From: Mobula hypostoma
Lineage: Eukaryota
Assembly (NCBI RefSeq): GCF_963921235.1
Contig: NC_086097.1
Coordinates: 111,044,001-111,108,000 of the forward strand
Direction of reading: 5' to 3'
Length of the DNA stretch: 64,000 bases
Shown: positions 5,009 to 64,000 of the stretch, in pieces
Position numbering within the stretch: the first letter of the stretch is position 1
Layout of the letters: each line of letters begins with the position of its first letter
The notes under the pieces: model-generated
Told to the model about the DNA's origin: nothing
The model's database searches: none
The model's input: only the letters and a program-made list of their open reading frames with translations
Translations under genes and position numbers: made by a program

Positions 5009-5192
5009 CAAGCTGGAGGAGCTCAGCAGGTCGGGCAGCATCCATGGAAAAGATCAGTCGACGTTTCGGGCCGGAACCCTTCTTCAGGGTTCTGGCCCGA
5101 AACATCGACCTATCTTTTCCACGGATGCTGCCCGACCTGCAGCTTGTTGTGAGTGTTGCTTTGACCCCAGCATCTGCAGATTATTTTGTGTT
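5009..5192. mobile_element. Palindromic Penelope-like mini-insertion of a different subfamily
   Basis: Inverted arms meeting near 5087; minus-strand core CTGAAGA-A-GGGT-TCCG-GCCC-GAAACGTC at 5056-5087; TSD taaaatactcattt at 4995-5008 and 5193-5206. Confidence 0.85.
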
Positions 5193-9520: not shown

Positions 9521-11310
9521 GGAAACAAAGAAGAACTTACAAAAGGTTCAAAAAAACTAGGTAATGATAGAGATCTAGAAGATTATAAGGCTAGCAGGAA
9601 GGAGCTTAAGAATGAAATTAGGAGCACCAGAAAGGGCCATGAGAAGGCCCTGGCAGACAGGATTAAGGAAAACCCCAAGGCATTCTACAAGTGTGTGAAG
9701 AGCAAGAGGATAAGACAAGAGAGAATAGGACCAATCTAGTGTGACAGTAGAAAAGTGTGTATGGACAAGAGGAGATAGCAGAGGTACTTAATGAATACTT
9801 TGCTTCAGTATTCACTACGGAAAAGGATCTTGGCGATTGTAGGGATGACCTGCAGCGGACTGAAAAGTTTGAGCATGTAGATATTAAGGAAGAGGATGTG
9901 CTGGAGCTTTTGGAAAGCATCAAGTTGGATAAGTCATCAGGACCGGACAGGATGTACCCAAGGCTACTGTGCGAAGTGAGGGAGCAAATACTGAGCCTCT
10001 GGCGATGACCTTTGCATCATCAATGAGGACAGGAGAGGTTCCAGAGGATTGGAGGGTTGCGGATGTTGTTCCTTTATTCAAGAAAGGGAGTAGGGATAGC
10101 CCAGGAAATTATAGACCAGTAAGTCATAACTTCAGAGGTTGGTAAGTTGATGGAGAAGATCTTGAGAGGCAGGATTTATGAACATTTGGAGAGGCATAAT
10201 ATGATTATGAATAGTCAGCATGGCTTTGTCAAAGGCAGGTCGTGCCTTACAAGCTTGATTAAATTTTTTGAGGATGTGACTAAACACATTGATGAAGGTA
10301 AAACTGTAGATGTAGTGTACAAGAATTTCAGCAAGGAAATTTGATAAAGTACCCCATGCAAGGCTTATTGCGAAAGTAAGGAGGCATGGGATACTTTGTG
10401 GATCCAGAACTGGTTTGCCCACAGAAGGCAAAGAGTGGTTGGAGATGGGTCATATTCTGCATGGAGGTCGGTGACCAGTGGATTGCCTGAGGGATCTGTT
10501 CTGGGACCCCCACTCTTCGTGATTTTTATAAATGACGGGATGAGGAAGTGGAGGGATGGGTTAGTAAATTTGCTGATGACACAAAGGTTGGGGGTGTTGT
10601 GGATAGTGTGGAGGGCTGTCAGAGGTTACAGCGGGACATTGATAGGATGCAAAACTTGGCTGAGAAGTGGATATGGAGCTGAACCCAGATAAGTGTGAGG
10701 TGGTTCATTTTGGTAGGTCAAATACGATAGCAGGTTATAGAATTAATAGTAAGACTCCTGGTATTGTGGAAGATCAGAGGGATCTTGGGGTCCGAGTCCA
10801 TAGGACACTCAAAGCTACTACACAGGTTGACTCTGTGGTTAAGGCAGCATATGGTGCATTGGCCTTCATCAAGCGTGGAATTGAATTTAAGAGCCAACAG
10901 GTAATGTTGCAGCTATATAGGACCCTGGTGAGACCCCACGTGGAGTACTGTGCTCAATTCTGGTCGCCTCACTACAGGAAAGACGTGGAAACCATAGAGG
11001 AGATTTACAAGGATGTTGCCTGGATTGGGGAGCATGCCTTATGAGAATAAGTTGACTGAACTCGGCCTTTTCTCCTTGGAGCGATAGTGGATGAGAGGTG
11101 ACCTGATAGAGTTGTACAAGATGATGAGAGGATCCTGTGGATAGTCAGAGGCTTGGGGACTTCCGGTAGCGCTCATGGAGTGAAGTCGCGTTCTTGACTC
11201 GCTCCATTACCTCTGAGTTTTTTCTCTCTATGGTCAGCTATACTTTAATTAACTATTAAGGCATCAATTTTTACAATACTTTGAATTAAACTGAATTCTC
11301 TGACAATTGG

Positions 11311-12210
11311 ATGATACTGAGATCGGCTATGTCTAAGAACGGGAAAGACGGCAAGGATGGTAAACCTCCGGTTAAACCAAAAGCTACGGATCTCCCTCCG
11401 ACTGAATCACCGGTGACTTTGAAAGCGATATCGGAGTTAATTCAGAGGGAAATTTCAACCTCTGTTAGGGAGATGATTCGTACAGAAATTATGGGCTTTG
11501 TTAAAGACCTGATTCATACGGAAATCTCAACTAAGTTCCAGAAAATTGCCGATTTAATTGATAAGATGCAAACATGTATTGCGGAACATCAGTCGGCTAT
11601 ATCTGATCTTCAAAAATCCGCGCAACAAAGTGAGCTTAAGATGGGGAAAGTCGAAGAAACAATTAATGTAATGAAGAAGAAACTTGACTTTTTGACTTTT
11701 AAAAACTCTGACTTGGAATCTAGAATGCGACGGCAGAATTTACGAATGATTGGCGTCAGGGAAGCCGTGGAAGCTAACAACCCTATGAAATATTTCTCCC
11801 AACTTTTAAAAGATGCATTCCCTACTGTATTTCCTGACCAACCACCGCTACTGGATCGTGTTCACAGAATCCCATCATACTCGTCTAGGTCAGATAGACC
11901 TAGGCATGTTATCTTACGTTTTCATTACTTTCAAGACAAGGAGAGACTGTTTCGATTCGCTCGATCTAAAGGTTTCATTGATTTTTCGGATCTTAAGTTC
12001 CGATTCGTGGAAGATTTCAGTAAACCAATCTGGGACCAACGGGTCCGTTACAGATCCGTGATGTCGGAATTCTATAAGATGGATTTAAGACCAGCGCTGC
12101 TGTACCCTGCACGTCTAAGGATTCGCATGTTAGATGGAGCCCTTCGTTTTTTTGATTCTCCATCGGATGCCCAGAGTTATCTGGATCAACTTTCATCTTC
12201 AACATCTTAA
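11311..12210 (+). CDS. L1 ORF1p (coiled coil, RRM, CTD), 299 aa
   Basis: LESRMRRQNLRMIGVRE, LDRVHR, PRHVILRFHYFQDKE and LLYPARLRI motifs typical of vertebrate L1 ORF1. Confidence 0.92.
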   Translation: MILRSAMSKNGKDGKDGKPPVKPKATDLPPTESPVTLKAISELIQREISTSVREMIRTEIMGFVKDLIHTEISTKFQKIADLIDKMQTCIAEHQSAISDLQKSAQQSELKMGKVEETINVMKKKLDFLTFKNSDLESRMRRQNLRMIGVREAVEANNPMKYFSQLLKDAFPTVFPDQPPLLDRVHRIPSYSSRSDRPRHVILRFHYFQDKERLFRFARSKGFIDFSDLKFRFVEDFSKPIWDQRVRYRSVMSEFYKMDLRPALLYPARLRIRMLDGALRFFDSPSDAQSYLDQLSSSTS

Positions 12211-12930
12211 TTGCCTTTTTTTAATTTTCTCCGTTGATCGGAGGCTGTGAATTGGTTGGTTTTAACTTTTCTGTGCCCTATTTGGGCAGAAAAGTTTACT
12301 TTCGATTTCTTAATATGGCTGCTAAACTTTCTTTTTAACTGCGTCATTTCTTTCTTTTCCCAGGGGATTTTGGGTGGTTACTTCCCTTTTGTCATCTTAC
12401 GTATTTCCTGTGCGGCCTTAAATTTTGTAGTTTTTTTTAAATTTTATTCTGTTTTGCTTTTTATAATCATTTTATGTTAATAATCCTATTTTTTTTGTTG
12501 CTGTGTCTATTCATGAGTTTGAGGTTTATTGTGGTTTTTTTTTAATATATACTTTCCGGCTTTTGTTCTGTTCTGTGTGTATTTTAATTGAGCTAACTTT
12601 TTTTTACTTATTTTTTTACTGTTTTACAATTAGCTGATCCTTTTTATATTTATACCTTTTTTTTAGGGAGCGTATACCGGAAGTCATGGGGGTAGTTTTA
12701 GCGCTTGCTTCTTTCTGGCGGGTCTGCTTTAGATTTCGCCTTGGGGTCTTGGGGTGGGGGGTGGTGGGAGGGGCTTCACGTTTTAGTTTGTTTCTCTTTG
12801 GGCTATATACATTATTGAAGTATTGGTTGCGTCCTTTTCCCCGGTATCTTTTGTATGTTCTGTTTCCTCTCCGGGTTTGTGGGTCGCGCCTATTGTCAAT
12901 CCTCCTTGTTATGGGTTGACTTTAGGATTT

Positions 12931-15900
12931 ATGGAGTCTATTATTAATTTTGTCTCCTGGAATACTAATGGTCTTAATCATCCTATTAAAAGGAAAAAAG
13001 TTTTTAAAGTGTTCCGGAGACTTAAAGCACAAATTTTATTTTTACAAGAGACCCATGTACGGAGGGGGGACAGACTACGTTTTTTCAAATTCTGGAAGGG
13101 ACAACAATTTCATTCGAACTCCAATGCTAAGATTCGAGGCGTCTCTATTTTTATAGACTCCTCAGTTACTTTTATACAACAGGATATTATCTCTGATCCG
13201 AATGGTAGATTTTTATTGGTTAGTGGTTTACTATTTAATAAAAAAGTAGTTTTGGTTAATGTTTATGCTCCTAATATGGATTGTCCGGAATTTTATAAAT
13301 CATTGTTTGATCAGTTTCCGAATTTGAACGAGTTTTCATTGATTTGGGGCGGAGATCTTAATACCTGTTTATCTCCAGCTTTGGACCGTTCGGCTCCTTT
13401 ACGGACTTTACCTAATAAATCTGCAAATTTGATTAATTTTTTCCTTTCTGATTCTGGGTCGACGGACATTTGGCGTTTTCTGCATCCTCAGGAAAAAGAT
13501 TTTTCCTTCTTTTCACATGTTCATCATTCCTATTCAAGAATTGATTATTTTTTCATTGATTCTCGTCTCATTCCTTCAGTGATTAAATGTGATTATGATT
13601 CTATAACCATTTCGGATCATGCTCCACTTAAGCTTTCTATTAAAATTATGGCCAATATACCAAACAATAGACAATGGCGTTTTAATTCGCTGTTGCTTCA
13701 GGACTCGGACTTTGTTAATTTTATGAATGAACAGATTGAGCTTTTTTTTACAATTAACCATACAGAAGATATTTCGGTTAACACTCTTTGGGACACTTTT
13801 AAAGCCTATATTCGGGGTCAGATTATTTCGTATTCCGTTGCTTTGAGGAAGAAACAGAAGCAGGAGGAGATGGCAATTGTGGACAAGATTAAAGAAATTG
13901 ATAAGAAATATGTTATGGCTCCTTCTGAGGAGCTATACAAACAAAGAACTGAACTTCAAATGGAACACAGTTTACTACTCTCGTCCTCGATTGTAAACCA
14001 ATTAAAGAAAACAAGAAGTGATTTTTATGTTCACAGTGATAAAATTGGCAAGCTGCTGGCTAATCAATTGAAATCTAATTATGTTAAATCTCAAATCAAT
14101 CAGATTTATAACCAAAATGATCGATTGATATTGGATCATGTGGGGATTAATCAAACCTTTTGTGATTTTTATTCTTCTTTATATCAATCAGAGTCTCCTC
14201 GAGATTCTAAATATATGAATGATTTTTTAGATAAGTTAGACTTCCCTCAGATTTCACAGGATATGTCTTCTTTATTAGATACTTCCATTACAATGGATGA
14301 GATTAAGAATGTTATTTTTTCTATGAATCTGGGGAAAGCTCCTGGCCCTGATGGGTTTACCGTTGAATTTTATAAATGTTTTGCTTCTTTATTGATTCCT
14401 TGGCTCTATAAGGTTTTTGAGGCTTCTTTGAAACTTGGTAAACTTCCGGAATCTTTTAATAGAGCATCAATTTCTTTAATACTAAAGAAGGATAAAGACC
14501 CTGCTCAATGTGCATCTTATAGACCAATATCTTTATTAAATGTTGATTCTAAAGTTTTTTCTAAGTTATTAGCAAATAGACTAGAAAAAGTACTTCCTTC
14601 TATTATTTCGGAAGACCAAACGGGTTTTATTAAAGGTCGTTACTCTTTTTATAATATTCGTACATTGTTAAATATCGTTTATAATCCCTCACAAAATGTT
14701 CCTGAGTGTGTTATTTCTTTAGATGCCGAGAAAGCTTTTGATAGAGTAGAATGGCCTTATTTATTTAAGGTGCTTGAAATGTTTAATTTTAGCTTGAAAT
14801 TTATATCCTGGATTAAACTGTTATATCACTCCCCTGTAGCCTCGGTTCGTACTAACTCCTTAAACTCACCTTTTTTTCCTCTCTTTCGTGGTACTCGACA
14901 AGGCTGTCCTCTTAGTCCCCTATTATTTGATATTGCATTAGAACCTCTTGCAATTGCTATTCGAGAATCTTTAAATATTACTGGGATAACTCGGGGATTA
15001 AAGTCCCATAAATTATCACTCTATGCTGATGATTTACTTTTATATATTTCTAATCCTGAGAGATCCATTCCTGCTGTTTTAGAGTTATTAGCACAATTTG
15101 GTCTTTTCTCAGGTTATAAATTAAATCTTAGTAAGAGTGAACTTTTTCCGATTAATAAACATCTTCCCTTATATTATAAATTTCCATTTAAATTGATTAA
15201 TAATTACTTTTCATATCTTGGGATTAAAATTACTTGTAAACATAAAGATTTATTTAAGACTAACTTTTTACCATTAATAGACCATATTACTCAACTTTCA
15301 TCTAAATGGTTTCCCTTATATTTAACTTTGATTGGTCGTATTAATGCAGTTAAGATGTTTTTTTTGCCAAAATTTTTATATGTGTTTCAGGCATTACCAA
15401 TTTTCGTTCCTAAATCTTTTTTTGATAAAGTTGACTCTAAAATTTCTTCATTTATTTGGCAGAATAAGAATCCGAGACTGGGTAAAATACATTTACAGAA
15501 AGCTAAGAGAGATGGAGGTTTAGCATTACCTAACTTTAGATTTTATTATTGGGCTATTAATATTCGACATATGAAATTTTGGTTACTTGACCGGGACATA
15601 CTATCTATTCCTAAATGGGTAGCATTGGAATTACAATCTGTTCAGGGTTATACACTTGGTTCTATTTTAGGTTCCTCTCTTCCTTTTGATTCGAAACGCC
15701 TTAAGCAGGTCTCTAACCCGATAGTTAAATATGCTTTGCGCATTTGGTTTCAATTCAGAAAATTTTTTGATCTTAATCAATTCGGGTTAGCGATTCCTAT
15801 TTTAGGTAACATATTTTTTCCTCCCTCTTTTACGGATCGCGCTTTTCAAACTTGGAAGACTAAGGGTATTTTACGGTTTTTGGATTTATTTTTAGATGGT

Positions 15901-16707
15901 TCCCTTATGTCTTTTGAACAATTATCTAATAAATATAACTTATCAAGAATACATTTTTTTAGATATTTACAAGTTAGAAATTTCCTAAGTACTATACTTT
16001 CTTCCTTTCCAATGCTTCCTCCTATATATATTTTAGATTCGATAATTAACCTTAATCCATGTCAGAAAGGTGCATCGGCTATGATTTATAATATTATTAT
16101 GAAACTTAGGAAAGCTCCATTTGATAAGATTAGGGTAGATTGGGAACAGGAATTGGGGCTTACCATTTCTGTGGATGATTGGGGGCAGATTTTACAATTA
16201 GTTAATACTTCCTCTATTTGTGCTAAACATTCCCTAATTCAATTTAAAGTGGTTCATAGAGCACATATGTCCAAAGATAAGTTAGCGCGTTTTTACTCGC
16301 ATATTAATCCTTTCTGTGATAGATGTTCGGGGCAGATAGCCTCTTTAACTCATATGTTTTGGTCTTGCCCTACTTTGGAAACTTTTTGGAGAGATATTTT
16401 CAATATTATTTCTAAGGTATTAAATATAGATATCTCTCCTCACCCTATTACTGCTATCTTTGGACTACCTAAAATTTCTAGTAATCTTTCCCCTTCAGCC
16501 CGTAGAATGATTGCATTTCTTACTTTAATGGCGAAAAGATGTATTTTACAATATTGGAAAGAGCTTAATGCTCCAACTACCTTTTTTTGGTTTTCTCAGA
16601 CGATTTTATGTTTGAATCTGGAGAAAATTAGAAGTAACCTTTATGATTCTTCATTTAAATTTGAACAGATTTGGGGACCTTTTATTCGATATTTTCATTT
16701 AATGTAA
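12931..16707 (+). CDS. L1 ORF2p (APE endonuclease, RT, CCHC knuckle), 1258 aa from the ATG at 12931
   Basis: SWNTNGLN, QETH, NVYAPN, GGDLN, SRIDYF, SDH; RQGCPLSP, YADD; C-terminal CDRC-x8-H-x4-C; no stops. Confidence 0.96.
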   Translation: MESIINFVSWNTNGLNHPIKRKKVFKVFRRLKAQILFLQETHVRRGDRLRFFKFWKGQQFHSNSNAKIRGVSIFIDSSVTFIQQDIISDPNGRFLLVSGLLFNKKVVLVNVYAPNMDCPEFYKSLFDQFPNLNEFSLIWGGDLNTCLSPALDRSAPLRTLPNKSANLINFFLSDSGSTDIWRFLHPQEKDFSFFSHVHHSYSRIDYFFIDSRLIPSVIKCDYDSITISDHAPLKLSIKIMANIPNNRQWRFNSLLLQDSDFVNFMNEQIELFFTINHTEDISVNTLWDTFKAYIRGQIISYSVALRKKQKQEEMAIVDKIKEIDKKYVMAPSEELYKQRTELQMEHSLLLSSSIVNQLKKTRSDFYVHSDKIGKLLANQLKSNYVKSQINQIYNQNDRLILDHVGINQTFCDFYSSLYQSESPRDSKYMNDFLDKLDFPQISQDMSSLLDTSITMDEIKNVIFSMNLGKAPGPDGFTVEFYKCFASLLIPWLYKVFEASLKLGKLPESFNRASISLILKKDKDPAQCASYRPISLLNVDSKVFSKLLANRLEKVLPSIISEDQTGFIKGRYSFYNIRTLLNIVYNPSQNVPECVISLDAEKAFDRVEWPYLFKVLEMFNFSLKFISWIKLLYHSPVASVRTNSLNSPFFPLFRGTRQGCPLSPLLFDIALEPLAIAIRESLNITGITRGLKSHKLSLYADDLLLYISNPERSIPAVLELLAQFGLFSGYKLNLSKSELFPINKHLPLYYKFPFKLINNYFSYLGIKITCKHKDLFKTNFLPLIDHITQLSSKWFPLYLTLIGRINAVKMFFLPKFLYVFQALPIFVPKSFFDKVDSKISSFIWQNKNPRLGKIHLQKAKRDGGLALPNFRFYYWAINIRHMKFWLLDRDILSIPKWVALELQSVQGYTLGSILGSSLPFDSKRLKQVSNPIVKYALRIWFQFRKFFDLNQFGLAIPILGNIFFPPSFTDRAFQTWKTKGILRFLDLFLDGSLMSFEQLSNKYNLSRIHFFRYLQVRNFLSTILSSFPMLPPIYILDSIINLNPCQKGASAMIYNIIMKLRKAPFDKIRVDWEQELGLTISVDDWGQILQLVNTSSICAKHSLIQFKVVHRAHMSKDKLARFYSHINPFCDRCSGQIASLTHMFWSCPTLETFWRDIFNIISKVLNIDISPHPITAIFGLPKISSNLSPSARRMIAFLTLMAKRCILQYWKELNAPTTFFWFSQTILCLNLEKIRSNLYDSSFKFEQIWGPFIRYFHLM

Positions 16708-21345: not shown

Positions 21346-22615
21346 CACAGTGGCTCTGACACAGTGTTTTGAAAGGCTCATTACAGCAAAATCATCTCCA
21401 GTCTCTCAGACAACCTCAACCTCTGGAATTTGACTACTATCAGGAACAGTTTCATGGCAGATGTCATTTCCTGGTCCAATACTCATCTCTAGAGCATCGG
21501 TTGAGTGAAGACACCTGTGCCAGACTACTGCCTTCAATACCATAACTTCAAGTAAATTTATTTCTAAACACCAAGACCTGAGACCCACCACCACCTTTTG
21601 CAACAGGATCCTTGACTTCTTGACCAACAGAGCACAATCAATAAAAATATTCAGCAACTCATCTGCCATAATTATCCTCAATGCTGGTGCCCCATGAGGC
21701 TGTGTCCTCAGCCCAACTTTATTCTCTATACACTTATGACAATGTAGACAGAATCTGTTCTAACTCCGTCTACAAGTTTGTAGTGGGCTGCAGATAAATA
21801 ATGATGTGTCTGAATACAGGAAGGAGATAGAGAGCTTAGTGGCACAGTGCCAAGGCAATTGTCCCTCAATGTCATCAAAATAAGTGTTGGTCATGCACCA
21901 AGAAGGGTGTGCAGTGCGCAGGCTCTTGTTTACATCAACAACGCTGAGGCCAGGCAGATCAAGTGCCTCAAGGTCCGGGGAGTGGACATCATGAATAGTC
22001 TGCTCTAGTCCAATTACACAGGCACCATGTTCAAGAAAGCACACCAACACCTCTGCTTCCTGAGGAGGATAAATACATTTGGCAACTCACCAACTTTTAA
22101 ATCAATACACCATGCAAGACAACAGGAATTCTGCAGATGCTGGAAATTCAAGCAACATACATCAAAGTTGCTGGTGAACGCAGCAGGCCAAGCAGCATCT
22201 ATAGGAAGAGGCGCAGTCGACGTTTCAGGCCGAGACCCTTCGTCAGGACAAAGGGTCTCGGCCTGAAACGTCGACTGCGCCTCTTCCTATAGATGCTGCT
22301 TGGCCTGCTGCGTTCACCAGCAATTTTGATGTATGTTACCATGCAAGACATCCTATCCAGGTGCATCACAGCTTGGTATGGCAACTGCTCTGCCTATGAC
22401 CACAAGAAACAATCCAGACTTACTGGCACAGCTCAGCAAATCAGGGAAACGAGCTTCCCATCAATGGACTCTGTCTATACTTCTCACTGCCCCAGTCAAG
22501 AGCCAACATATCAAAGGTCCCACCCAATGCTCTCTTTCTTCTCCCCTCTTCCATTGGGGAAAATATACAAAACTCTTAAATCATGTACCACCAGGCTCAC
22601 AGACAGTGTCTATCA
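21346..22615 (+). mobile_element. Old Rex1/Babar RT fragment, host of a Penelope mini-palindrome
   Basis: KKAHQHLCFLRR and CITAWYGNC remnants. Confidence 0.7.
22122..22337. mobile_element. Palindromic Penelope-like mini-insertion
   Basis: Arms meet near 22250; minus-strand hammerhead motif at 22215-22249; TSD accatgcaagaca at 22109-22121 and 22338-22350. Confidence 0.92.
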
Positions 22616-32580: not shown

Positions 32581-35500
32581 CCAACAACAGGAATTCTGCA
32601 GATGCTGGAAATTCAAGCAACACACATCAAAGTTGCTGGTGAACGCAGCAGGCCAGGCAGCATCTGTAGGAAGAGGTGCAGTCGACGTTTCAGGCCGAGA
32701 CCCCTCGTCAGGACTAACTGAAGGAAGAGTGAGTAAGGGATTTGAAAGTTGGAGGGGGAGGGGGAGGTCCAAAATGATAGGAGAAGACAGGAGGGGGAGG
32801 GATAGAGCCAAGAGCTGGACAGGTGATAGGCAAAAGGGGATACGAGAGGATCATGGGACAGGAGGTCCGGGAAGAAAGACGGGGGGGAGGGGGGACCCAG
32901 AGGATGGGCAAGAGGTATATTCAGAGGGACAGAGGGAGAAAAAGGAGAGTGAGAGAAAGAATGTGTGCATAAAAATAAGTAACAGATGGGGTACGAGGGG
33001 GAGGTGGGGCCTTAGCGGAAGTTAGAGAAGTCGATGTTCATGCCATCAGGTTGGAGGCTACCCAGACGGAATATAAGGTGTTGTTCCTCCAACCTGAGTG
33101 TGACTTCATCTTTACAGTAGAGGAGGCCGTGGATAGACATGTCAGAATGGGAATGGGATGTGGAATTAAAATGTTTGGCCACTGGGAGATCCTGCTTTCT
33201 CTGGCAGACAGAGCGTAGACGTTCAGCAAAGCGGTCTCCCAGTCTGCGTCGGGTCTCGCCATTATATAAAAGGCCACATTGGGAGCACCGGACGCAGTAT
33301 ATCACCCCAGTCGACTCACAGGTGAAGTGTTGCCTCCCTGGAAGGACTGTTTGAGGCCCTGAATGGCGGTAAGGGAGGAAGTGTAAGGGCATGTGTAGCA
33401 CTTGTTCCGCTTACACGGATAAGTGCCAGGAGGGAGATCAGTGGGGAGGGATGGGGGGGACGAATGGACAAGGGAGTTCTGTAGGGAGCGATCCCTGCGG
33501 AATGCAGGGGGGGGGAGGGAAAGATGTGCTTAGTGGTGGAATCCCGTTGGAGGTGGCGGAAGTTACGGAGAATAATATGTTGGACCCGGAGGCTGGTGGG
33601 GTGGTAGGTGAGGACCAGGGGAACCCTATTCCTAGTGGGGTGGCGGGAGGATGGAGTGAGAGCAGATGTACGTGAAATGGGGAAGATGCGTTTAAGAGCA
33701 GACTTGATAGTGGAGGAAGGGAAGCCCCTTTCTTTAAAAAAGGAAGACATCTCCCTCATCCTAGAATGAAAAGCCTCATTCTGAGAGCAGATGCGGTGGA
33801 GATGGAGGAATTGCGAGAAGGGGATGGCGTTTTTGCAAGAGACAGGGTGAGAAGAGGAATAGTCCAGATAGCTGTGAGAGTCAGTAGGCTTATAGTAGAC
33901 AACAGTGGATAAGCTGTCTCCAGAGACAGAGACAGAGACAGAAAGATCTAGAAAGGGGAGGGAGGTGTCGGGAATGGACCTGGTAAACCTGAGGGCAGGG
34001 TGAAAGTTGGAGGCAAAGTTAATAAAGTCAACGAGTTCTGCATGCGTGCAGGAAGCAGCGCCAATGCAGTCGTCGATGTAACGAAGGAAAAGTGGGGGAC
34101 AGATACCAGAATAGGCACGGAACATAGATTGTTCCACAAAGCCAACAAAAAGGCAGGCATAGCTAGGACCCATACGGGTGCTCATAGCTACACCTTTAGT
34201 TTGGAGGAAGTGGGAGGAGCCAAAGGAGAAATTATTAAGAGTAAGGACTAATTCCGCTAGACGGAGCAGAGTGGTGGTAGAGGGGAACTGATTAGGTCTG
34301 GAAACTGATTAGTTCCCTGGCCCCCACCGCTTTATTTTCACCATGGATGTCCAGTCCTTATATACTTCCATCCCCCATCAGGATGGTCTCAAAGCTCTAG
34401 GCTTCTTTTTGGATTCCAGACCTAATCAGCTCCCCTCTACCACCACTCTGCTCCATCTAGCGGAATTAGTCCTTACTCTTAATAATTTCTCCTTTGGCTC
34501 CTCCCACTTCCTCCAAACTAAAGGTGTAGCTATGGGCACCCGTATGGGTCCCAGCTATGCCTGCCTTTTTGTTGGCTTTGTGGAACAATCTATGTTCCGT
34601 GCCTATTCTGGTATCTGTCCCCCACTTTTCCTTCGCTACATCGACGACTGCATTGGCGCTGCTTCCTGCACGCATGCTGAGCTCGTTGACTTTATTAACT
34701 TTGCCTCCAACTTTCACCCTGCCCTCAGGTTTACCTGGTCCATTTCCGACACCTCCCTCCCCTTTCTAGATCTTTCTGTCTCTGTCTCTGGAGACAGCTT
34801 ATCCACTGATGTCTACTATAAGCCTACTGACTCTCACAGCTATCTGGACTATTCCTCTTCTCACCCTGTCTCTTGCAAAAATGCCATCCCCTTCTCGCAA
34901 TTCCTCCGTCTCCGCTGCATCTGCTCTCAGGATGAGGCTTTTCATTCCAGGACGAGGGAGATGTCTTCCTTTTTTAAAGAAAGGGGCTTCCCTTCCTCCA
35001 CTATCAAGTCTGCTCTTAAACGCATCTCCCCCATTTCACGTACATCTGCTCTCACTCCATCCTCCCGCCACCCCACTAGGAATAGGGTTCCCCTGGTCCT
35101 CACCTACCACCCCACCAGCCTCCGGGTCCAACATATTATTCTCCGTAACTTCCGCCACCTCCAACGGGATCCCACCACTAAGCACATCTTTCCCTCCTCC
35201 CCTCTCTGCTTTCCGCAGGGATCGCTCCCTAGGCAACTCCCTTGTTCATTCATCCCCCCCCCCCATCCCTCCCCACTGATCTCCCTCCTGGCACTTATCT
35301 GTGTAAGTGGAACAAGTGCTACACATGCCCTTACACTTCCTCCCTTACCACCATTCAGGGCCCCAAACAGTCCTTCCAGGTGAGGCAACACTTCACCTGT
35401 GAGTCGACTGGGGTGATATACTGCGTCCGGTGCTCCCGATGTGGCCTTTTATATATTGGCGAGACCCGACGCAGACTGGGAGACCGCTTTGCTGAACATC

Positions 35501-36073
35501 TACGCTCTGCCCGCCAGAGAAAGCAGGATCTCCCAGTGGCCACACATTTTAATTCCACATCCCATTCCCATTCTGACATGTCTATCCACGGCCTCCTCTA
35601 CTGTAAAGATGAAGTCACACTCAGGTTGGAGGAACAACACCTTATATTCCGTCTGGGTAGCCTCCAACCTGATGGCATGAACATCGACTTCTCTAACTTC
35701 CGCTAAGGCCCCACCTCCCCCTCGTACCCCATCTGTTACTTATTTTTATGCACACATTCTTTCTCTCCCTCTGTCCCTCTGAATATACCTCTTGCCCATC
35801 CTCTGGGTCCCCCCCCCATCTTTCTTCCCGGACCTCCCGTCCCATGATCCTCTCGTATCCCCTTTTGCCTATCACCTGTCCAGCTCTTGGCTCTATCCCT
35901 CCCCCTCCTGTCTTCTCCTATCATTTTGGATCTCCCCCTCCCCCTCTCAAATCCCTTACTCACTCTTCCTTCAGTTAGTCCTGACGAGGGGTCTCGGCAT
36001 GAAACGTCGACTGCACCTCTTCCTACAGATGCTGCCTGGCCTGCTGCGTTCACCAGCAACTTTGATGTGTGTT
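32581..36073. mobile_element. Fold-back Penelope-like insertion: minus arm 32583-34303, plus arm 34311-36073
   Basis: Both arms encode the RT C-terminus (RYIDD), GIY-YIG and pLTR; one TSD ac(c/t)taatctgctg at 32568-32580 and 36074-36086. Confidence 0.93.
32680..32715 (-). ncRNA. Minimal hammerhead ribozyme motif (left arm)
   Basis: AGTC-CTGACGA-G-GGGT-CTCG-GCCT-GAAAC-GTC-GACT. The mirror copy at 35977-36012 (+) has a stem II mismatch. Confidence 0.72.
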
Positions 36074-36540
36074 ACTTAATCTGCTGAGCACGTTTCCACT
36101 AAAGCAATAATGACCAAAGAAATATCTGATTACCAGGCACAGTTTTCTGTTAAACTAAGTAGTTTACTTTACTAACAAAAGGTTACAATGCAATCACAAA
36201 TCAAAATCAACATTTCTACATTATCTATCATAACTTGATATTTCATGTCTAAGAACATTCTATCAGAAAAATATTATACAACCCTGACTAATCTGATGAA
36301 AATCCCAGTTCAAGAGTTATTTATGGACGTGCAGTTTATTCCCTAGCATGATTGTTCTTTCGATACTAGTATATTTAAGAAATCTTAAATTGTTAAATTT
36401 CAAATTATTTTAACATCAAGGCTGCAGCCATGTTCATATACACAGTCCTCTGAAAGTAGAATACAGGTAGACAGGGTGGTGAAGAAAACTTTTGGCATGC
36501 TGGCCTTCATCAGCCAAGGCTCTGAGAATACAAGTTCCAA

Positions 36541-41699: not shown

Positions 41700-42020
41700 C
41701 TCTGAATATTTCGATCTATAATTGGCCAAACTCCGCTCAATCCGACGAAACTGGTTGGAAGATATGTCCTTACTGATGCTCTCAAAGGTGCCTGCATTAT
41801 CTTCTGTCTCACTTTCAATATCTGATGATGGATCAAAGATGGCACCAGAAGACTGAACATCTAAATCAAACCGATTAAGTGACTCTCTTGAAGCAGTTCG
41901 TACAAGTGAGTCTTTTGAAGGCGATGAGAAAAGTGATTCTTTGGAAGAGGCTCGAAATAAAGACTCCATGGAGGGAACACGAAGTTGAAGTTTCTGGGCA
42001 AAAGACTGCATCTCGGTTTT
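41700..42020 (-). CDS. GOLGA4: GOLGA4 exon, 321 nt: KTEMQSFAQKLQLRVPSMESLFR...RSLANYRSKYSE
   Basis: Poly-T tract plus tag acceptor, GAG/gtagtt donor. Peptide matches the golgin-245 N-terminus (QSFAQKLQLRVPSVESLFR...SLVRTSSRESLNR...KYSE). Confidence 0.95.
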
Positions 42021-54415: not shown

Positions 54416-55244
54416 GCCCACTGCCCTACTTTTAATTGTCTTTGTCACCTCCTCAAAAACCCACTTAAGTTTTTTGGCACAAACTCCCACATACAAACCC
54501 ATGCCAGTTTGTGTAATCTATGTCTATGCTTTTCCAGATGAGAGTGGACCCCATCACTAAAAATCTTCTCCAATAATATCCCTACCAAGCATTTAAGGAA
54601 ATATGCCTTCTATCCCCTGATCAAGCATGCCATACACCAGAGTTGCATCCTTCATAGAACTATGGACTTAGACACAAAGATCTCTCATTTCATCCACAAT
54701 CCTTCATGCTTATCTTCAACTTCCAAAATCAAAACTCTCCTCCTCACTGACAATATCTCTCTATGCTTATGACTTTGTGGCCAGGTACAGCTCAAACACC
54801 ATCTATAAAATTCACTGATGACAGCACTGTTGTTGGCAGAATCTCACATGTCAATAAGAAATATACAGGAGAGAAAGAGATTGGCTGGGTGACTGGTGTT
54901 GCATTTAACATCAAGACCCAGGAATTAACTATGGACTCCAGAAATGGAAAGTCAGGAGAACACATTGAAGGGTCAGCAGTGGAAAGGATGAGCAGTTTTA
55001 AGTTCCTGGGTGTCAATATCTCACAGATGTTCCGTGGAGTGCATTCTGACTGGTTGCATAGCCATCTGGTATGAAGGTGCCACTGCATAGGATCGAAAGA
55101 GGCTCTAGCTGATGGTAATCTCAGCAAGCTCTGTCACAGCAAAATCCTCCCCAGCATCAAGGACATCATCCTCAAGGTAGCAGCATCCATCATTAAGGAC
55201 CCTGACCATCAGGGTATGCGTTTTTCTCATTACTATCGTCAATG

Positions 55245-57430
55245 ATATGAGATGATATGGATGCAATGGGAGGCAAGGATCACTAAAAAGGTAGTCCTGA
55301 GCAAACCAGCGGGCCTAAAGATAGACAAGTCCTCTAGTCCTGATGGAATGCATCCCAGGCTACTGAAAGAAATGGCAGAGATCATACAGGGTTTGGTGAT
55401 AATTTACCAAAATTCTCTGGACTCTGGACAGGTCCCAGGAGATTAAAAGAAGGCGACTGTCCCGCCACTGTTCAAAAAAACAGGATGTAGGTAAAAGACA
55501 GGTTAGTTAGTTTAATATCTGTAGTTGGAAAAATGCTTGAAGCTATCATTAAAGAAGTAGCGAGGCATCTGGAAAGAAATGGATCCAACATGCAGATGCA
55601 GCACGGATTCAACAAAGGCAGGTCCTGGCTGTCAAACTTACCGGAGTTCTCTGAGGATATAACAAGTGCAGTGGATAGAGGGGAACAGATGGCCATTATT
55701 TACTTGGAGTTCCAGAATGCATTCAATAAGGTGCCACATAAAAGACTTATAAAGATAAGGATGCACAGAGCTAGTGGTGATGTATCAGTGTAGCGTGCTG
55801 TAAGGATTCACTGCTAATGTAATGGCTTCTTTGTAATGTTTCACTGCTAAGGCTAACGTAATGGCTTCTCTGTAATGTTCACTGCTGAGGTAACCGTTTC
55901 TCTGTAGCAGCAATTTTTGGGTTATGGCTGGAGATAACAGGACTGTGGTATTGCATGTTAGCCAATCGGAGATTGTTGCTTTGTCTTGTGTACCTGGAAG
56001 GACGTTTATTCATGGTCTTTTGTCGAGGAAAGATGAAGAAGGAAGACGCATGTGGAGAGGGCTGGTAGAACACTGGACAGAGTGGACTGGGATCTGACGG
56101 GCCGAAAATTGGCGACGCTCGGAGGAGACCGATGGTGGAAGAACGACTACTGAGTGAGCTCCAACGTGAATTTTGGACTTTTCCTTGAATTGGGCCCTTT
56201 TTTTTATTTTCATTACTAACCCTATATTCGGATTAAGATTCATAAAATTCAATCGTTTAATTGCATATGGTGTACCGTCTGATATTTTGCGTTGTGGGTT
56301 TATAACTAGGTGGTACATTACAGAGCATCCACACAAACGTGATTTCCAAGTTTGGCGGGGCCAAAGGTTGTTTCCCCTGGATGAACACGAACCGGGCGAG
56401 CCTGAGGGTTACATTAGCATGGATCGAAGATTGGTTAACTAATAGAAAGCGGAGAGATGGGATAATGAGTGTTTCCCTGGTTGGCAATCATCAGGGGTTG
56501 GTGCTGGATCCGTAGCTGTTAACAATATACATTAACGGTCTGGGAAATGGGGCCATGTGTAGTGTATCTAAGTTTGCTGATGACACTAAATTGAGTGGAA
56601 AAGCAAATTGTGCAGAGGATATAGATAAGTTAAGTGAGTGGGCAAGGGTCTGGTAGATGGAGTACAATGTTAGTAAATGCGAGGCTACCCACTTTGGAAG
56701 GAAAAATGGAAGATCAGGTTAGTATTTAAATGGTAAAAGATTACAGCATGCTGCTTGGGAGTGCTTGTGCATGAATCGCAAAAGGTTGGTTTGCAGGTGC
56801 AGCAGGCTCCCAAGGCGGCAAATGGAATCTTGGTCTTCATTGCTAAAAGGATTGAATTTAAGAGCAGGGAGGTTATGCTGCAACTATATAGGGTACTGGC
56901 GAGAACACATCTGGAATACTGCGTGCAGTTCTGGTCTCCTTACTTAAGCAAGAATATACTGGCTCTGGAGGCGGTGCAGAAGTTCACCAGGTTGATTCCA
57001 GAGATGAGGGGGTTAGACTATGGGGAGAGATTGAGTCGCCTAGGACTGTACTTGCTGGAATTCAGAAGGATGACAGGAGTTCTTATAGAAACATAAAATT
57101 TTGAAAGGGATAGATAAGATAGAATCAGTAAAGTTGTTTCCACTGGTGGGAGAAACTAGAATTAAGGGATTCAGGGGAGAAACTGCTTTTCCCAAAGAGT
57201 GGTGAATTTGTGGAATTCTCTGCCCAATGAAGCAGTGGCAGCTACTTCAATTAATATATTTAAGACAAGATTGGATAGATTTTTGCATAGTTGGGGAATT
57301 AAAGATTATGGGGAAAAGGCACGCAAGTGGAGATGAGTCCATGGTCAGATAAGCCAAGATATTATTGAACGGCAGAGCAGGTTCAAGGGCCAGATGGCCT
57401 ACTCCTGTTCCTATTTCTTATGTACTTATG
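55245..57430 (+). mobile_element. 5'-truncated CR1 interrupted by a solo LTR
   Basis: PDGMHPRLLKE, QHGFNKGRSWL and HLEYCVQFWSPY motifs. Confidence 0.85.
55789..56413. mobile_element. Solo LTR, 625 bp
   Basis: TGTAGC...GTTACA termini; TSD tcag/ttag (one mismatch); CR1 continuity across it; internal tandem repeats at 55808-55910. Confidence 0.75.
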
Positions 57431-57781
57431 TTCAAAGAGACAGTACAGGAGCGTAAGCTTCTTCCACTCTATCAGATTTCTGAAACAGCCCATGAACACT
57501 CACCCACTATTACTCATTTGCACTATTAATTTTTTAATTGTGACTGGACTTTTTAAATTATATCTTTGCACTGTACTGCTGTCACAAAAGCAAATTTCAA
57601 GACATAGTGATAATAAACCTGATTCTGATTTTGAAATAAAACTGCATTTCTCATTATTCTGCAAACCAGAGGATGGATGTGTATAACAACAGGAATTCTG
57701 CAGATGCTGGAAATTCAAGCAACACACATAAAAGTTGCTGGTGAACGCAGCAGGCCAGGCAGCATCTATAGGAAGAGGCGC

Positions 57782-57817
57782 AGTCGACGTTTCAGGCCGA
57801 GACCCTTCGTCAGGACT
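57782..57817 (-). ncRNA. Minimal hammerhead ribozyme in the 3' pLTR (predicted cut between 57786 and 57785)
   Basis: AGTC-CTGACGA-A-GGGT-CTCG-GCCT-GAAAC-GTC-GACT; stem I AGTC/GACT; loopless palindromic stem III ACGT. Confidence 0.8.
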
Positions 57818-58111
57818 AACTGAAGGAAGAGTGAGTAAGGGATTTGAAAGCTGGAGGGGGAGGGGGAGATGCAAAATGATAGGAGAAGACAGGAGGGGGA
57901 GGGATGGAGCCGAGAGCTGGACAGGTGATAGGCAGAAAGGGATACGAGAGGATCATGGGACAGGAGGTCCGGGAAGAAAGACGGGGGGGGGGGTGACCCA
58001 GAGGATGGGCAAGAGGTATATTCAGAGGGACAGAGGGAGAAAAAGGAGAGTGAGAGAAAGAATGTGTGCATAAAAAAGAGTAACAGATGGGGTACGAGGG
58101 GGAGGTGGGGC

Positions 58112-61100
58112 CTAGCGGAAGTTAGAGAAGTCAATGTTCATGCCATCAGGTTGGAGGCTACCCATACGGAATATAAGGTGTTGTTCCTTCAACCTGAGTG
58201 TGGCTTCATCTTTACAGTAGAGGAGGCCGTGGATAGACATGTCAGAATGGGAATGGGATGTGGAATTAAAATGTGTGGCCACTGGGAGATCCTGCTTTCT
58301 CTGGCGGACAGAGCGTAGATGTTCAGCAAAGCGGTCTCCCAGTCTGCGTCGGGTCTCACCAATATATAAAAGGCCACATCGGGAGCACCGGACGCAGTAT
58401 ATCACCCCAGTCGACTCACAGGTGAAGTGATGCCTCACCTGGAAGGACTGTTTGGGGCCCTGAATGGTGGTAAGGGAGGAAGTGTAAGGGCATGTGTAGC
58501 ACTTGTTCCGCTTACACGGATAAGTGCCAGGAGGGAGATCAGTGGGGAGGGATGGGGGGGACGAATGGACAAGGGAGTTGTGTAGGGAGCGATCCCTGCG
58601 GAATGCAGAGAGAGGGGGGGAGGGGAAGATGTGCTTAGTGGTGGGATCCCGTTGGAGGTGGCGGAAGTTACGGAGAATAATATGTTGGACCCGGAGGCTG
58701 GTGGGGTGGTAGGTGAGGACCAGGGGAACCCTATTCCTAGTGGGGTGGTGGGAGGATGGAGTGAGAGCAGATGTACGTGAAATGGGGGAGATGCGTTTAA
58801 GAGCAGACTTGAGAGTGGAGGAAGGGAAGCCCCTTTCTTTAAAAAATGAAGACATCTCCCTCGTCCTAGAATGAAAAGCCTCATCCTGAGAGCAGATGCG
58901 GCGGAGACGGAGGAATTGCAAGAAGGGGATGGCGTTTTTGCAAGAGACAGGGTGAGAAGAGGAATAGTCCAGATAGCTGTGAGAGTCAGTAGGCTTATAG
59001 TAGACATCAGTGGATAAGCTGTCTCCAGATACAGAGACAGAAAGATCTAGAAAGGGGAGGGAGGTGTCGGAAATGGACCAGGTAAACTTGAGGGCAGGGT
59101 GAAAGTTGGAGGCAAAGTTAATAAAGTCAACGAGTTCTGCATGCGTGCAGGAAGCAGCGCCAATGCAGTCGTCGATGTAGCGAAGGAAAAGTGGGGGACA
59201 GATACCAGAATGGGCACGGAACATAGATTGTTCCACAAACCCAACAAAAAGGCAGGCATACCTAGGACCCATACGGGTGCCCATAGCTACACCTTTAGCT
59301 TGGAGGAAATGGGAGGAGCAAAAGGAGAAATTATTAAGAGTAAGGACTAATTCTGCTAGACGGAGCAGAGTGGTGGTAGAGGGGAACTGATTAGGTCTGG
59401 AATCCAAAAAGAAGCGTAGAGCTTTGAGACCTTCCTGATGGGGGATGGAAGTATATAGGGACTGGACATCCATGGTGAAAATAAAGCGGTGGGGGCCAGG
59501 GAACTTAAAATCATCGAAAAGTTTAAGAGCGTGAGAAGTGTCACGAACATAGGTCGGAAGGGATTGAACAAGGGGTGATAAAACAGTGTCGAGGTATGCA
59601 GAAACGAGTTCGGTGGGGCAGGAGCAAGCTGAGACAATAGGTCGGCCAGGACAGGCAGGTTTGTGGATCTTGGGTAGGAGGTAGAAACGGGAAGTGCGGG
59701 GTGTGGGAACTATAAGGTTGGTAGCAGTGGATGGGAGATCCCCTGAGCGGATAAAGTCGTTGATAGTGTGGGAGACAATGGCCTGGTGCTCCTTAGTGGG
59801 GTCACGATCGAGGGGTAAATAAGAGGAGGTATCCGCGAGTTGGCGCTGTGCCTTGGCAAGGTAGAGGTCAGTACGCCAGACTACAACAGCACCCCCTTTA
59901 TCAGCGGGTTTAATAATAATGTTAGGATTAGTGCGGAGGGAGTGGAGAGCAGAGCGTTCCGAAGGAGTGAGGTTGGAATGGGGACAAGGTGCGGTGAAGT
60001 CGAGACGGTTATGTCCCGTCGGCAGTTGGCAATAAAGAGATCCAGAGCAGGCAGAAGACCAGAGCGGGGTGTCCATGAAGAAGAGGAGGGTTGAAGACGG
60101 GAGAAGGGGTCATCGGTGGGGGTGGAAGAGTCCTTGCCGAAGAAGTAGGCTCGGAGACGGAGACGGCGGAAGAAAAGTTCCGCATCATGGCGAACACGGA
60201 ACTCGCTGAGGTGTGGGCGAAGGGGGACAAACGTGAGGCCCTTACTGAGAACAGAGCGTTCTGCCTCCGACAGTTGAAGGTCGGAGGGGATGGTAAAGAC
60301 CCGGCACGGATGAGAGCTGGGATCAGAGGGGGGAGGGGGGAGGCTGGGGGTGTCAATGGAGAGGGGAGGGTTGGGGTGAGAGGAAGATGGAGCCTCTGAG
60401 GGCCCAGGAGTTGACGGTGGGATCTGAGGAAGACGGGGCTGCGGAGTGGTGGTGGGGGAAGGGGAGACGGGAGTCACAACAGCAGCACATAAAGACCCGG
60501 CCTGGAGTTCAAGGCTGGAGTCGCAGTTGGTGGTTGCGCAATCGCTGTGAAGGTGTCCGTGGTCGTTGCTGGAGTCCGGGTTTTGAATATGTCCTGAGGT
60601 GTTGGAGCCGCCGAGATCAACGGCAGTGGCCGCAACCGAAAGTTCATGCCTGCTAGCGTCGGGGCCGGCAGGCTCTGGAGTCCGTAGATGTAAGATCTTG
60701 CGATCTTTGCCTAACATGACAAAGTCAAAGAAACGGCGATTGCAGGCGTGGATCCGACGGAGGATGAAATAGCGGGTAGGACCATTACAGACGGCGAAGA
60801 AAGTGTCCCGAAGGTGTGGAAGGGTCTGGGATAGGGACACCAAGTACCTCCTCATGGCGGACAGCGTCGCCTTCAGAGCTTGACGGGAGAAGCGGCGAGA
60901 GGCAGAGTCAATAAAATGTGAGTACCTGGGATCCTCAGAAGGTCCAAATTGAGAGGCTTGGAAACGAATCCTAAAGCCAACTGGAGTAAGTTGGCGACGG
61001 AGGCATGTTCCAAGAAAGGATACATGGCTGTGATAGCGAGTTTGAGTCAAAGTCTGGTCGAAAAGTTGAAGAGCCGAAGAAATCACAGATGGGGAGCAGT

Positions 61101-61161
61101 GAGAGATGGTTTCACTGAACTCCCGTCGAAGAGAGGATCTAAACTTCTTCGGTGTAGGCAT
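58112..61161 (-). pseudogene. Penelope RT plus GIY-YIG ORF (~1016 aa if restored) with a single 1-nt deletion near 60010
   Basis: MPTPKK start; IIKPADKGG, YLLPKIHK, GRPIVS, MDVQSLYTSI, GVAMGT, RYIDD; linker CKRNKCYTC; VIYCVRCSRCGLLYIGET...FAEH. Frames join as ANCRRDI/NRLDF if one base is added. Confidence 0.92.
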
Positions 61162-61295
61162 CACCGGAAGAGGCTTCGCAGTAGTGAATTTAAACGCAAA
61201 CAACAGGAATTCTGCAGATGCTGGAAATTCAAGCAACACACATAAAAGTTGCTGGTGAACGCAGCAGGCCAGGCAGCATCTATAGGAAGAGGCGC

Positions 61296-61331
61296 AGTCG
61301 ACGTTTCAGGCCGAGACCCTTCGTCAGGACT
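61296..61331 (-). ncRNA. Minimal hammerhead ribozyme in the 5' pLTR (predicted cut between 61300 and 61299)
   Basis: Identical to 57782-57817; about 140 nt upstream of the ORF ATG. Confidence 0.8.
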
Positions 61332-61845
61332 AACTGAAGGAAGAGTGAGTAAGGGATTTGAAAGCTGGAGGGGGAGGGGGAGATGCAAAATGATAGGAGA
61401 AGACAGGAGGGGGAGGGATGGAGCCGAGAGCTGGACAGGTGATAGGCAGAAGGGGATACGAGAGGATCATGGGACAGGAGGTCCGGGAAGAAAGACGGGG
61501 GGGGGGGTGACCCAGAGGATGGGCAAGAGGTATATTCAGAGGGACAGAGGGAGAAAAAGGAGAGTGAGAGAAAGAATGTGTGCATAAAAAAGAGTAACAG
61601 ATGGGGTACGAGGGGGAGGTGGGGCCTAGCGGAAGTTAGAGAAGTCAATGTTCATGCCATCAGGTTGGAGGCTACCCATACGGAATATAAGGTGTTGTTC
61701 CTCCAACCTGAGTGTGGCTTCATCTTTACAGTAGAGGAGGCCGTGGATAGACATGTCAGAATGGGAATGGGATGTGGAATTAAAATGTGTGGCCACTGGG
61801 AGATCCTGCTTTCTCTGGCGGACAGAGCGTAGATGGATGTGTATA

Positions 61846-62217
61846 TTTATTTATATATACACATTTTTTTCCTCTCTCTCTCTCTCCTTTTTCTCCCTCT
61901 GTCCCTCTCACTATACCCCTTGCCCATCCTCTGGGTTTCCCCCCTCCCCCTTTTCTTTCACCCTAGGCCTCCTGTCCCATGATCCTCTCTTATCCCTTTG
62001 GCCAATCAACTGTCCAGCTCTTGGCTCCATCCCTCCTCCTCCTGTCTTCTCCTATCATTTTGGATCTCCCCCTCCCCCTCCCACTTTCAAATCTCTTACT
62101 CGCTCTTCTTTCAGTTAGTCCTGACGAAGGGTTTCGGCCTGAAACGTCGACTGTACCTCTTCCCAGAGATGCTGCTTGGCCTGTTGCGTTCACCAGCAAC
62201 TTTGATGTGTGTTGCTT
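61846..62217 (+). mobile_element. Older Penelope pLTR fragment of another subfamily with a hammerhead at 62117-62152
   Basis: Diverged pLTR outside the TSD of the young element; stem II loop TTCG. Confidence 0.82.
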
Positions 62218-64000
62218 AGTAATAAACAGATCACACAAAGGAGAGCTGGTGGATGTGTTTACTTGGATTTTCGCAAGGCCACTGACATATGTCCCTCTGA
62301 ACCTTGAGGCTGTGTCTCCTAGTTCCAGTCTCACCTACCATGGGGGGGGTTCCAGGCCTGGCTGCAAAAGGAGGTTGTTTAGGCATGAGAGTAGCAACCC
62401 CATCCCATAAAAAAAACCAGTGTGACAGAAACATCAGAAGTTCCAAAGACCTCATCCCTCGCAGAGGAAGGATCTTCAAATATGGGCTATACCTTGAAAG
62501 GCTGGCTTGGGACAAAGGACTCTGGTGAGTTGCTTTCAGCCTATGGCACAATAGGAGTGACGGGGTGGTGAAGAAGTGACTTTTATACCCTTGACTACCA
62601 AAATTCCTAGAGTATTCAGTTTTTTGTATTCCTTTAGCTCTAAGAATACTTCAGCTTAAGAGCTGAAGGATTCTGCAATCGTTTCCAACAAGTGTTTTCT
62701 GAACTTTGAATGGTTTGCATCAAATTTTAAGGTTCACAGTTCTCGACTAAATGCTAATTCCATCTAACCTTTTATTAAATGTTAAACACCTCAATTAAAT
62801 TATACCTTAATTGCCTTTACTTAAAGGAATCCAAATTGATGCAAGTAGTTACCTCAACTTCATTAACAGCCATATAATTTTGATCAATCTTCGTTGTGCT
62901 CCCATTGAAGTCAGTACCTTTCCTGCACTAGAGAATCCAACACAAAATTCCAGATGGGACCTCCAACAATTAATGTTGATGTTTTTGGGGGAAGGGAGGG
63001 GGGTGAACGGTCAGTTAATAGCTCTCACATAGTGCAAACTCTGGGAAGTTTGCACAATGTACCAAACTTCAAGGTCCTTTCAGCCCATCAGTCCAATTAA
63101 ACACAACATATCTGAGGGGTCCTTGTGTAGCCCAGTGAAGCAACAATTTTCGTTATCCCAAAGTAGAGGCCGAGGGTAACAAGGGAGTTAGAATCCAGTT
63201 AATGCTACAAATTCAATTGACACAGCAACTCTATTTACCAAGTCTTGTTCAACGTCTTTCAAAGGGAAAAAATTCTGAGAAAGGATCCAGGACGGAAACA
63301 TTCGCAGTCTTCTTTCCATAGATACCACCTGACCTGCTGAGTATTTCCAGCAACGTCTGTTTTTGTATGAAACAGGATTTTCAAAATGACGTCTTAAAGA
63401 AATGCGGCTAATGTCGATAACTGCTAGGCTGAGGGGCAAGCTTCAGCACTCTAGCGTTCTATAAATAATTGTTAGCATTTACAATTACACTCCTTGACAG
63501 ACATTGTCAATTGGTTTCAATTTAATGTTACATCAGATGTGCTACAGTAAGGCAATGAAATAGTCATTTAATAGCTCAGTCTATCTAAGTTTAATAAAAT
63601 ACACAACATAACCAAGCTCAAGATGTTAACATTAAGTTAGTCTTTGCTTTGATGTATTAATTTATAAAACATGCATTTGTGGATATTATTCACGTCAGCT
63701 GGTATTCAAAAGCAATACCTGGTTAATATTCTACAGCAAACCATATATTGATTATTTAAGGGTTTCATTATTCTGTTGGAGGTAAGAGCTTACAATTCCC
63801 ATATTTGAAGTTCCCATTCTCCAAATCTGAACAGACACTTAAAGCACTATTTGAGTATGTTTGCAAAGTAGACATCAACAATACTTATTGAAACCCCTAG
63901 ATAAACTCAAGGTTCAGTACTAAATGCCTTGGAAAAAAAAATGCAAGCTTCAAGCAACATAATTTTCTCTTCCAAAATGCTTCTCCTACACTACCATGGC

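Follow-up and report, generated by a model that had tools for sequence, protein, structure and literature searches.

Minimal hammerheads reportedly cleave as dimers, as is also said of the work of Lunse et al. in 2017. Cervera and De la Pena (2014) described minimal hammerheads in both pLTRs of Penelope-like elements (PLEs), among them tandem pairs about 3 kb apart, and found the activity of the dimers to be low (PMC4209133). They also proposed that the RNA cuts itself, is ligated into circles and is then reverse-transcribed over more than one unit, which would explain the tandems, and this cleave-circularise-copy proposal is restated in a 2019 review (PMC6765202). In D. virilis Penelope, the pLTR serves as promoter, transcription starting within the upstream repeat (PMC2377424). 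In the Anolis element, mutation of the hammerhead left insertion in vitro unaffected, cleavage required the protein, and RNA-seq reads neither started nor stopped at the cut (Frangieh et al. 2024, PMC11167929). The Naiad PLEs form partial tandems in the absence of canonical hammerheads (PMC8557442), and RNA circles were shown for animal non-LTR retrozymes (PMC7229834; bioRxiv 10.64898/2026.07.22.740005). No mention of elasmobranchs was found in the searched literature on Penelope retrotransposons and ribozymes, which leaves most subscription papers outside.

In our study, a stretch of 64,000 nucleotides from the ray Mobula hypostoma (the window) was found to contain a partial-tandem PLE copy of the Neptune/Nematis type, fairly young but dead, from a very abundant family. 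The observation made in the original prediction, a pair of identical hammerheads, is confirmed. Its interpretation is partly supported and already in print, as the circle model was published in 2014 (PMC4209133).

Comparison with Described Elements

Like the min-HHRs of metazoan PLEs (PMC4209133), the hammerheads of the ray element were of type I, with a short stem I, an extra base before stem II and a loopless palindromic stem III, and occurred one per pLTR as a pair about 3 kb apart around the RT ORF. Unlike those min-HHRs, they were present in a ray host, their 4-bp stem II was closed by G-U instead of G10.1-C11.1, and the ORF was frameshifted. The element resembled the Neptune/Nematis EN+ PLEs (PMC8557442) in its DKG-containing reverse transcriptase (RT), CX4CxxC linker, C-terminal GIY-YIG with internal CxxC, partial tandem, 32-nt tail, hammerhead near the 3' end and inverted insertions with a tail at one end; unlike these references, the ray copy is defective, and its clade was assigned by motif only. 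It shared with PAc, the Poseidon element of Anolis carolinensis (PMC11167929), the two 3' end points one tail apart, both downstream of the cut, and the AT-rich target. The hammerhead of PAc overlaps the ORF start, whereas that of the ray element was found 138 nt upstream of the ATG, with the tail in the 5' UTR. Animal non-LTR retrozymes (PMC7229834; bioRxiv 10.64898/2026.07.22.740005) also contain type I hammerheads in head-to-tail repeats; they are hundreds of nt long and non-coding with canonical hammerheads, in contrast to the ray element, which is 3.5 kb long and coding with minimal motifs. Identity as a non-LTR retrozyme was rejected, as the 3514-nt unit contained RT and endonuclease sequence.

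Two Identical Minimal Hammerheads

The two 36-nt minimal type I hammerheads were present on the minus strand at 61296-61331 (upstream, predicted cut 61300/61299) and 57782-57817 (downstream, predicted cut 57786/57785), one per 637-nt pLTR. The original prediction had given their coordinates and the spacing of 3514 nt exactly; the two motifs were the same at 36/36 nt, and the 5'-OH ends predicted at 61299 and 57785 agreed with the motif geometry. The intact core, 4-bp stem I and loopless ACGU stem III that had been claimed were likewise present in both. Stem I was AGUC/GACU with four Watson-Crick pairs (a fifth, U-G pair is possible), followed by CUGACGA as the core, one additional A, stem II (4 bp, with a loop of 4 nt) and GAA; the cleavage triplet was GUC. 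The motifs contained the type I core nucleotides C3 U4 G5 A6 N7 G8 A9, G12 A13 A14, A15.1-U16.1 and H17, together with the short stem I, the extra base between positions 9 and 10.1 and the palindromic stem III of the minimal form. The pair 10.1-11.1 was G-U in both motifs, not G-C, which makes them a wobble variant. The G10.1-C11.1 pair is highly conserved in minimal hammerheads, yet it lies outside the published descriptor, and the loss of G-C at this position would slow hammerhead cleavage.

A descriptor that demanded Watson-Crick pairing in stem I and a palindrome in stem III gave 8 matches in the window, of which 7 were family copies and one was unrelated, and none in 200 dinucleotide shuffles, so the motif is not due to chance. 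No hammerhead family match was found in the Rfam scan of 55000-64000 with E up to 1; the minimal form at these sites falls outside the Rfam models. A pyrimidine tract with AG was present at and just 5' of stem I (57816-57845 and 61330-61359, minus strand). It resembles the intron end at helix I of D. virilis Penelope (PMC4209133), a weak likeness, as pyrimidines make up 77% of the UTR and its 5 AGs all look similar.

Architecture and Clade of the Element

The insert had a total length of 4151 nt and was a partial tandem, flanked as a whole by one target site duplication (TSD) of up to 14 bp. The left copy of the TSD was found at 57672-57685, its final base common with the element end, and the same 14-mer was found at 61832-61845, where the first 4 bases are common with the element 5' end. 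The downstream pLTR (57685-58321, minus strand, 637 nt) contained the endonuclease coding end, a pyrimidine-rich 3' UTR, the hammerhead and the tail, and the upstream pLTR (61199-61835, minus strand), a 5'-truncated upstream copy, continued seamlessly as the 5' UTR of the full-length unit. The two pLTRs were identical at 635/637 positions (2 mismatches). They had 13 alleles in common that neither of the two other long window copies carried, and their only 2 mutual differences were both derived in the downstream pLTR, which indicates a recent regeneration of the repeat from a single sequence. The 32-nt tail (57685-57716, minus strand) lay between the main 3' end points of the family, +69 and +101 from the cut, which probably represent RT start sites. 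A tail of 30-40 bp is described for PLEs (PMC8557442; PMC11167929), and both the tail and the partial tandem forming the pLTRs agree with an EN+ PLE. The hypothetical RNA between both cuts (57786-61299, minus strand, 3514 nt) would comprise, by arithmetic only, a leader of 138 nt, the broken ORF and a trailer of 326 nt. An upstream ORF of 16 codons was present in the leader (61229-61279, minus strand), ending at the +69 end point.

The linker CX4CxxC was found upstream of GIY-YIG, as it was in 103/103 YIG-bearing relatives among the 120 listed. A CX2-5CxxC linker marks Neptune/Nematis and is absent in Penelope/Poseidon (PMC8557442). The element would therefore belong with Neptune/Nematis and not with Penelope/Poseidon, an assignment made from the linker motif and not from a tree; its zinc finger rules out the Poseidon clade. 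In all, 2819 relatives were found, the closest of them in Mobula (92-94%) and other cartilaginous fish. An older inverted family fragment, 89% identical, was present at 61846-62217 (plus strand) with its own hammerhead at 62117-62152. It was rejected as a part of the insertion 57685-61835 by its identity and its position outside the TSD, which makes it a separate, older insertion.

Coding Region and Frameshift

The 5' part of the ORF (59881-61161, minus strand, about 426 aa) began with the first long-frame ATG at 61161, was out of frame past 60010 and ended at the stop 59881, before the RT. The 3' part (58112-60010, minus strand) contained the RT (DKG, YIDD), the CX4CxxC linker and the GIY-YIG endonuclease, its start codon being in the other frame. 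At 60010 (minus strand) the copy contained one base fewer than the other family copies in the window; uninterrupted relatives followed one frame to 60010 and the other frame beyond, and 80 of the 120 listed relatives matched upstream of the break. Contigs with the extra base at 60010 were found in all 4 sequencing runs used, out of 24 listed (23, 6, 3 and 18 contigs), and the frameshift could be an assembly error. In the unique part, run X1 showed several positions with more than 99% of the depth for another letter (among the 40 rows listed of 165), which fits neutral decay of the element copy. The excised RNA had been expected to carry the whole ORF; this expectation failed, as the one-base frameshift splits the ORF, so that an RNA excised by the two cuts has no coding capacity for RT or endonuclease. 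The copy is defective and not autonomous.

The domain order was that of an EN+ PLE, an RT with DKG followed by a C-terminal GIY-YIG, with the DKG, YIDD and YIG motifs present and 2819 relatives found. Pfam gave RVT_1 with E 1.7e-4 and GIY-YIG with E 1e-3, both under the curated cut-offs. The CCHH finger contained CxxC between VIY and YIG, and its two later histidines were invariant in 30 aligned sequences. Two ray gene models with host-gene names (P0005 and P0019) were found to contain the RT sequence of the element, which points to exonisation or annotation contamination.

Host Gene and Neighbours

The host strand was fixed by a GOLGA4 coding exon at 41703-42020 (minus strand), which matched proteins named golgin A4. 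Further GOLGA4 exons were found near 41391, 39889, 39319 and 2650 (minus strand), with a weak candidate at 45059. The five exons were all on the minus strand, and the element is therefore sense to GOLGA4, as had been predicted. No N-terminal GOLGA4 exons were found in the window, and we infer that the element lies in a GOLGA4 intron. Two host exons received no usable name from the ESM Atlas. The prediction had relied on host read-through for the transcript; such read-through is in principle not needed, as the pLTR of D. virilis Penelope is a promoter (PMC2377424). An apparently intact L1-type LINE with two ORFs (frames of 306 aa and 1306 aa), typed by eye, was present at 11290-16707 (plus strand), antisense in a GOLGA4 intron.

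Family Copies in the Window and Their Ends

The family copies matching the descriptor were found on the GOLGA4 strand (5 copies) and on the opposite strand (2 copies), with the same stem I and stem III in all. With five same-strand copies in the window, a privileged cis-dimer of the two hammerheads is not supported. The pair 10.1-11.1 was G-U in 8 of the 11 distinct window copies and G-C in 2 older copies. Pair counting in 12 window copies gave no two-sided change, and the shuffles were not beaten (417/500); the window copies are too close in sequence, so that covariation rests on the relatives.

The pLTR region gave 17 alignments in the window, of which 13 crossed the cut, 2 were upstream and 2 old ones were downstream; none had its start or end at the cut. 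The ends of young copies were mostly found at +65 to +69 or about +101 past the cut, with one at +47. In both DNA runs, the best-supported loose end among the 24 of 4852 rows listed was 57685 (+101), with 209 and 181 contigs, and these 24 contained no loose ends at the cut.

Short insertions inverted head to head were observed in the window at 3565-3781, 22119-22337 and about 5024-5180, and in two relatives (L062, 50-207; L005, 2-61). Their inversion points were inside the 5' half of the hammerhead, at about -34 to -20, and never at the cut; the sample is small, and L062 and L005 were found via the motif itself. The start of 7 of the 13 cut-crossing alignments was at -29 to -40. These inversion and start points suggest RT stalling, fold-back or an RNA 5' end at the 5' edge of the hammerhead. 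A long inverted family insertion was also present at 32583-36077, with a 9-bp TSD, arms ending at +101 and +69, and the tail at one end only. A DNA contig of run X5 joined 57817, the 5' boundary of the hammerhead, to 57707 in the tail region, which may reflect an inversion at another place in that genome or a short tandem resembling a retrozyme.

Related Loci in Metagenome Contigs

A metagenome scan with a single protein query gave no matches. In the alignment-based scan of metagenome contigs, the best 80 of 579 loci were kept, and these contained 14 motifs versus 0.02 expected per shuffle. Stem III was palindromic in 13/14 related motifs, with three different palindromes (the related families are not independent), and the stem I sequences varied while the pairing was kept. 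The motif was located on the RT strand in 12/13 related motifs, and G10.1-C11.1 was found in 13/13, versus G-U in the ray motif. One relative (L058) contained two motifs 3152 nt apart, in direct repeats flanking the ORF, which is the same layout; together with the five same-strand copies in the window, this means that the pair studied here is not special. Two other relatives (L043 and L048) were found in long direct repeats with a spacing of 3709 and 3839, with the hammerhead upstream of the ORF. The statement that such minimal hammerheads cleave as dimers holds for the architecture, which is of the dimer type with a palindromic stem III; as a statement on activity it is weakened, as the activity was low (PMC4209133) and depended on protein in the Anolis element (PMC11167929).

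Folding Predictions

The monomer was predicted to fold as a rod, in which GACG of the core would pair with CGUC of the cleavage site. In a 121-nt context, both the MFE and the centroid contained an alternative hairpin at 57802-57832 (minus strand), in which the CUGA core and the 5' stem II strand would be bound, and a core-sequestering hairpin was likewise predicted in the upstream pLTR. The active double hammerhead was calculated at about 10 kcal/mol (10.5) above two monomers and, with the linker and 0-230 nt of flank, at 19-32 kcal/mol above the best fold, energies that leave out tertiary contacts and Mg2+. The gap of 10.5 is not special, as it falls inside the 1.1-15.1 kcal/mol of the relatives. 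The predicted probability of stem II in context was 0.00-0.01 for 6/6 scored G-U copies of the ray and 0.99 for a G-C copy of the ray; in 10/13 related motifs it was at least 0.57.

Template and Mechanism

The copy ends were found past the cut and none at the cut; the template was therefore continuous across the site, either uncut or re-ligated. We consider it probable that the locus is a dead partial-tandem copy made by internally started reverse transcription on an RNA continuous at both sites and likely uncut, in a family whose hammerheads are weak or protein-dependent. The insert would have been made by one target-primed reverse transcription with an internal start 101 nt beyond the downstream hammerhead, which then crossed the two cleavage sites, the template most likely being an uncut tandem transcript. 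The hammerheads would be the standard dimer-type motif of the family. In naked RNA they would be mostly off, held in the rod or by the upstream hairpin and weakened by G-U at 10.1-11.1, and cleavage would probably be weak or aided by the element protein, as a side or late step. With mostly-off hammerheads and the frameshift, the copy is unlikely to release much unit-length RNA, and any released RNA could make no enzyme.

Several observations support this internal start on uncut RNA. The two end points past the cut match the two internal RT starts and the tail of PAc, whose hammerhead mutants inserted normally (PMC11167929), and the spread of Naiad without canonical hammerheads (PMC8557442) argues in the same direction. 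The weakness of the hammerheads is supported by the low dimer activity in vitro (PMC4209133), and their mostly-off state by the near-zero probability of stem II in the G-U copies. The single TSD, the identity of the pLTRs, the frameshift and the like layout in L058 also count in favour. Other observations count against it. PAc belongs to the Poseidon type and its hammerhead overlaps the beginning of the ORF, so that it may be a poor guide to the ray element; distant relatives have retained the motif although its stems and palindromes vary, which indicates a selected function; the calculated energies leave out tertiary contacts and Mg2+, and the 10.5 kcal/mol gap is within the span of the relatives; the frameshift may be an assembly error; and pLTR regeneration from one template is neatly explained by a circle.

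In the circular alternative, pairing of the hammerheads, either in cis or in trans, would lead to excision of a unit RNA, a host ligase would close it, and tail-started RT would copy more than one turn (1.18), which would give identical pLTRs. The original prediction was right that a circular template is compatible with the partial tandem, since the geometry and the near-identical pLTRs with their common subfamily alleles agree with it. The obligate-dimer layout of the motifs, the seamless internal junction with a single TSD, and the RT start sites downstream of the cut, still usable on closed RNA, are also as expected. Small hammerhead circles exist for the non-coding animal retrozymes (PMC7229834), and in 2008 pLTR regeneration had no obvious known mechanism (PMC2377424). 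The same DNA would, however, result from a template jump or a tandem source locus, and the re-ligated junction equals the genomic tandem junction, so that DNA cannot separate a circle from uncut tandem RNA. The normal insertion of hammerhead mutants in vitro (PMC11167929), the partial tandems of PLE clades without canonical hammerheads (PMC8557442), and the G-U closing pair and competing hairpin of the ray subfamily also stand against a circle. In the literature searched, which leaves most subscription papers outside, no report of a full-length PLE circle was found, and the circles reported were those of retrozymes. We therefore regard the circle as unlikely at the level of the family; the present locus offers no test of it.

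It is similarly doubtful that the hammerhead is a decaying passenger, largely switched off by G-U in the ray subfamily while the family spreads anyway. The distribution of G-U, in 8/11 distinct window copies against G-C in 2 older ones and in 13/13 related motifs, is in its favour, and hammerheads were suggested as possible parasites of PLEs (PMC8557442). The catalytic core bases are nevertheless all intact in the young copies, and G-U still pairs. Five same-strand copies are tolerated in one gene versus two opposite ones (a small sample), but intronic cleavage need not harm splicing, which gives this tolerance little weight.

HDV-like ribozymes free R2 RNA from host read-through transcripts. 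A linear release of this kind, by which the hammerheads would free the element RNA from host read-through as an uncapped unit-length RNA for translation, termination or turnover and not as RT template, is quite improbable: the tidy 138-nt leader that the upstream cut would leave before the ATG, the location of the motif on the RT strand in 12/13 related matches and the protein-assisted cleavage in the Anolis element (PMC11167929) are set against the broken ORF of the copy, the 16-codon upstream ORF inside that leader and the Anolis RNA-seq without ends at the cut (PMC11167929). The linear released RNA was also set aside as RT template, as the start sites would lie only 69-101 nt from its 5' end.

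Significance

The locus itself adds little, being a defective copy with a weakened motif. The boldest form of the circle model, in which the ray PLE family replicates via a hammerhead-released, re-ligated 3.5-kb coding circle, with introns giving the precursors and the hammerhead fold setting RT stall and inversion, is a long shot. If true, it would give the first demonstration of an RNA circle as template in an autonomous eukaryotic retrotransposon, and an explanation of pLTR regeneration. The very high-copy ray family is a fair system for studying both the role of the hammerhead in Penelope-like elements and the regeneration of the pLTRs.
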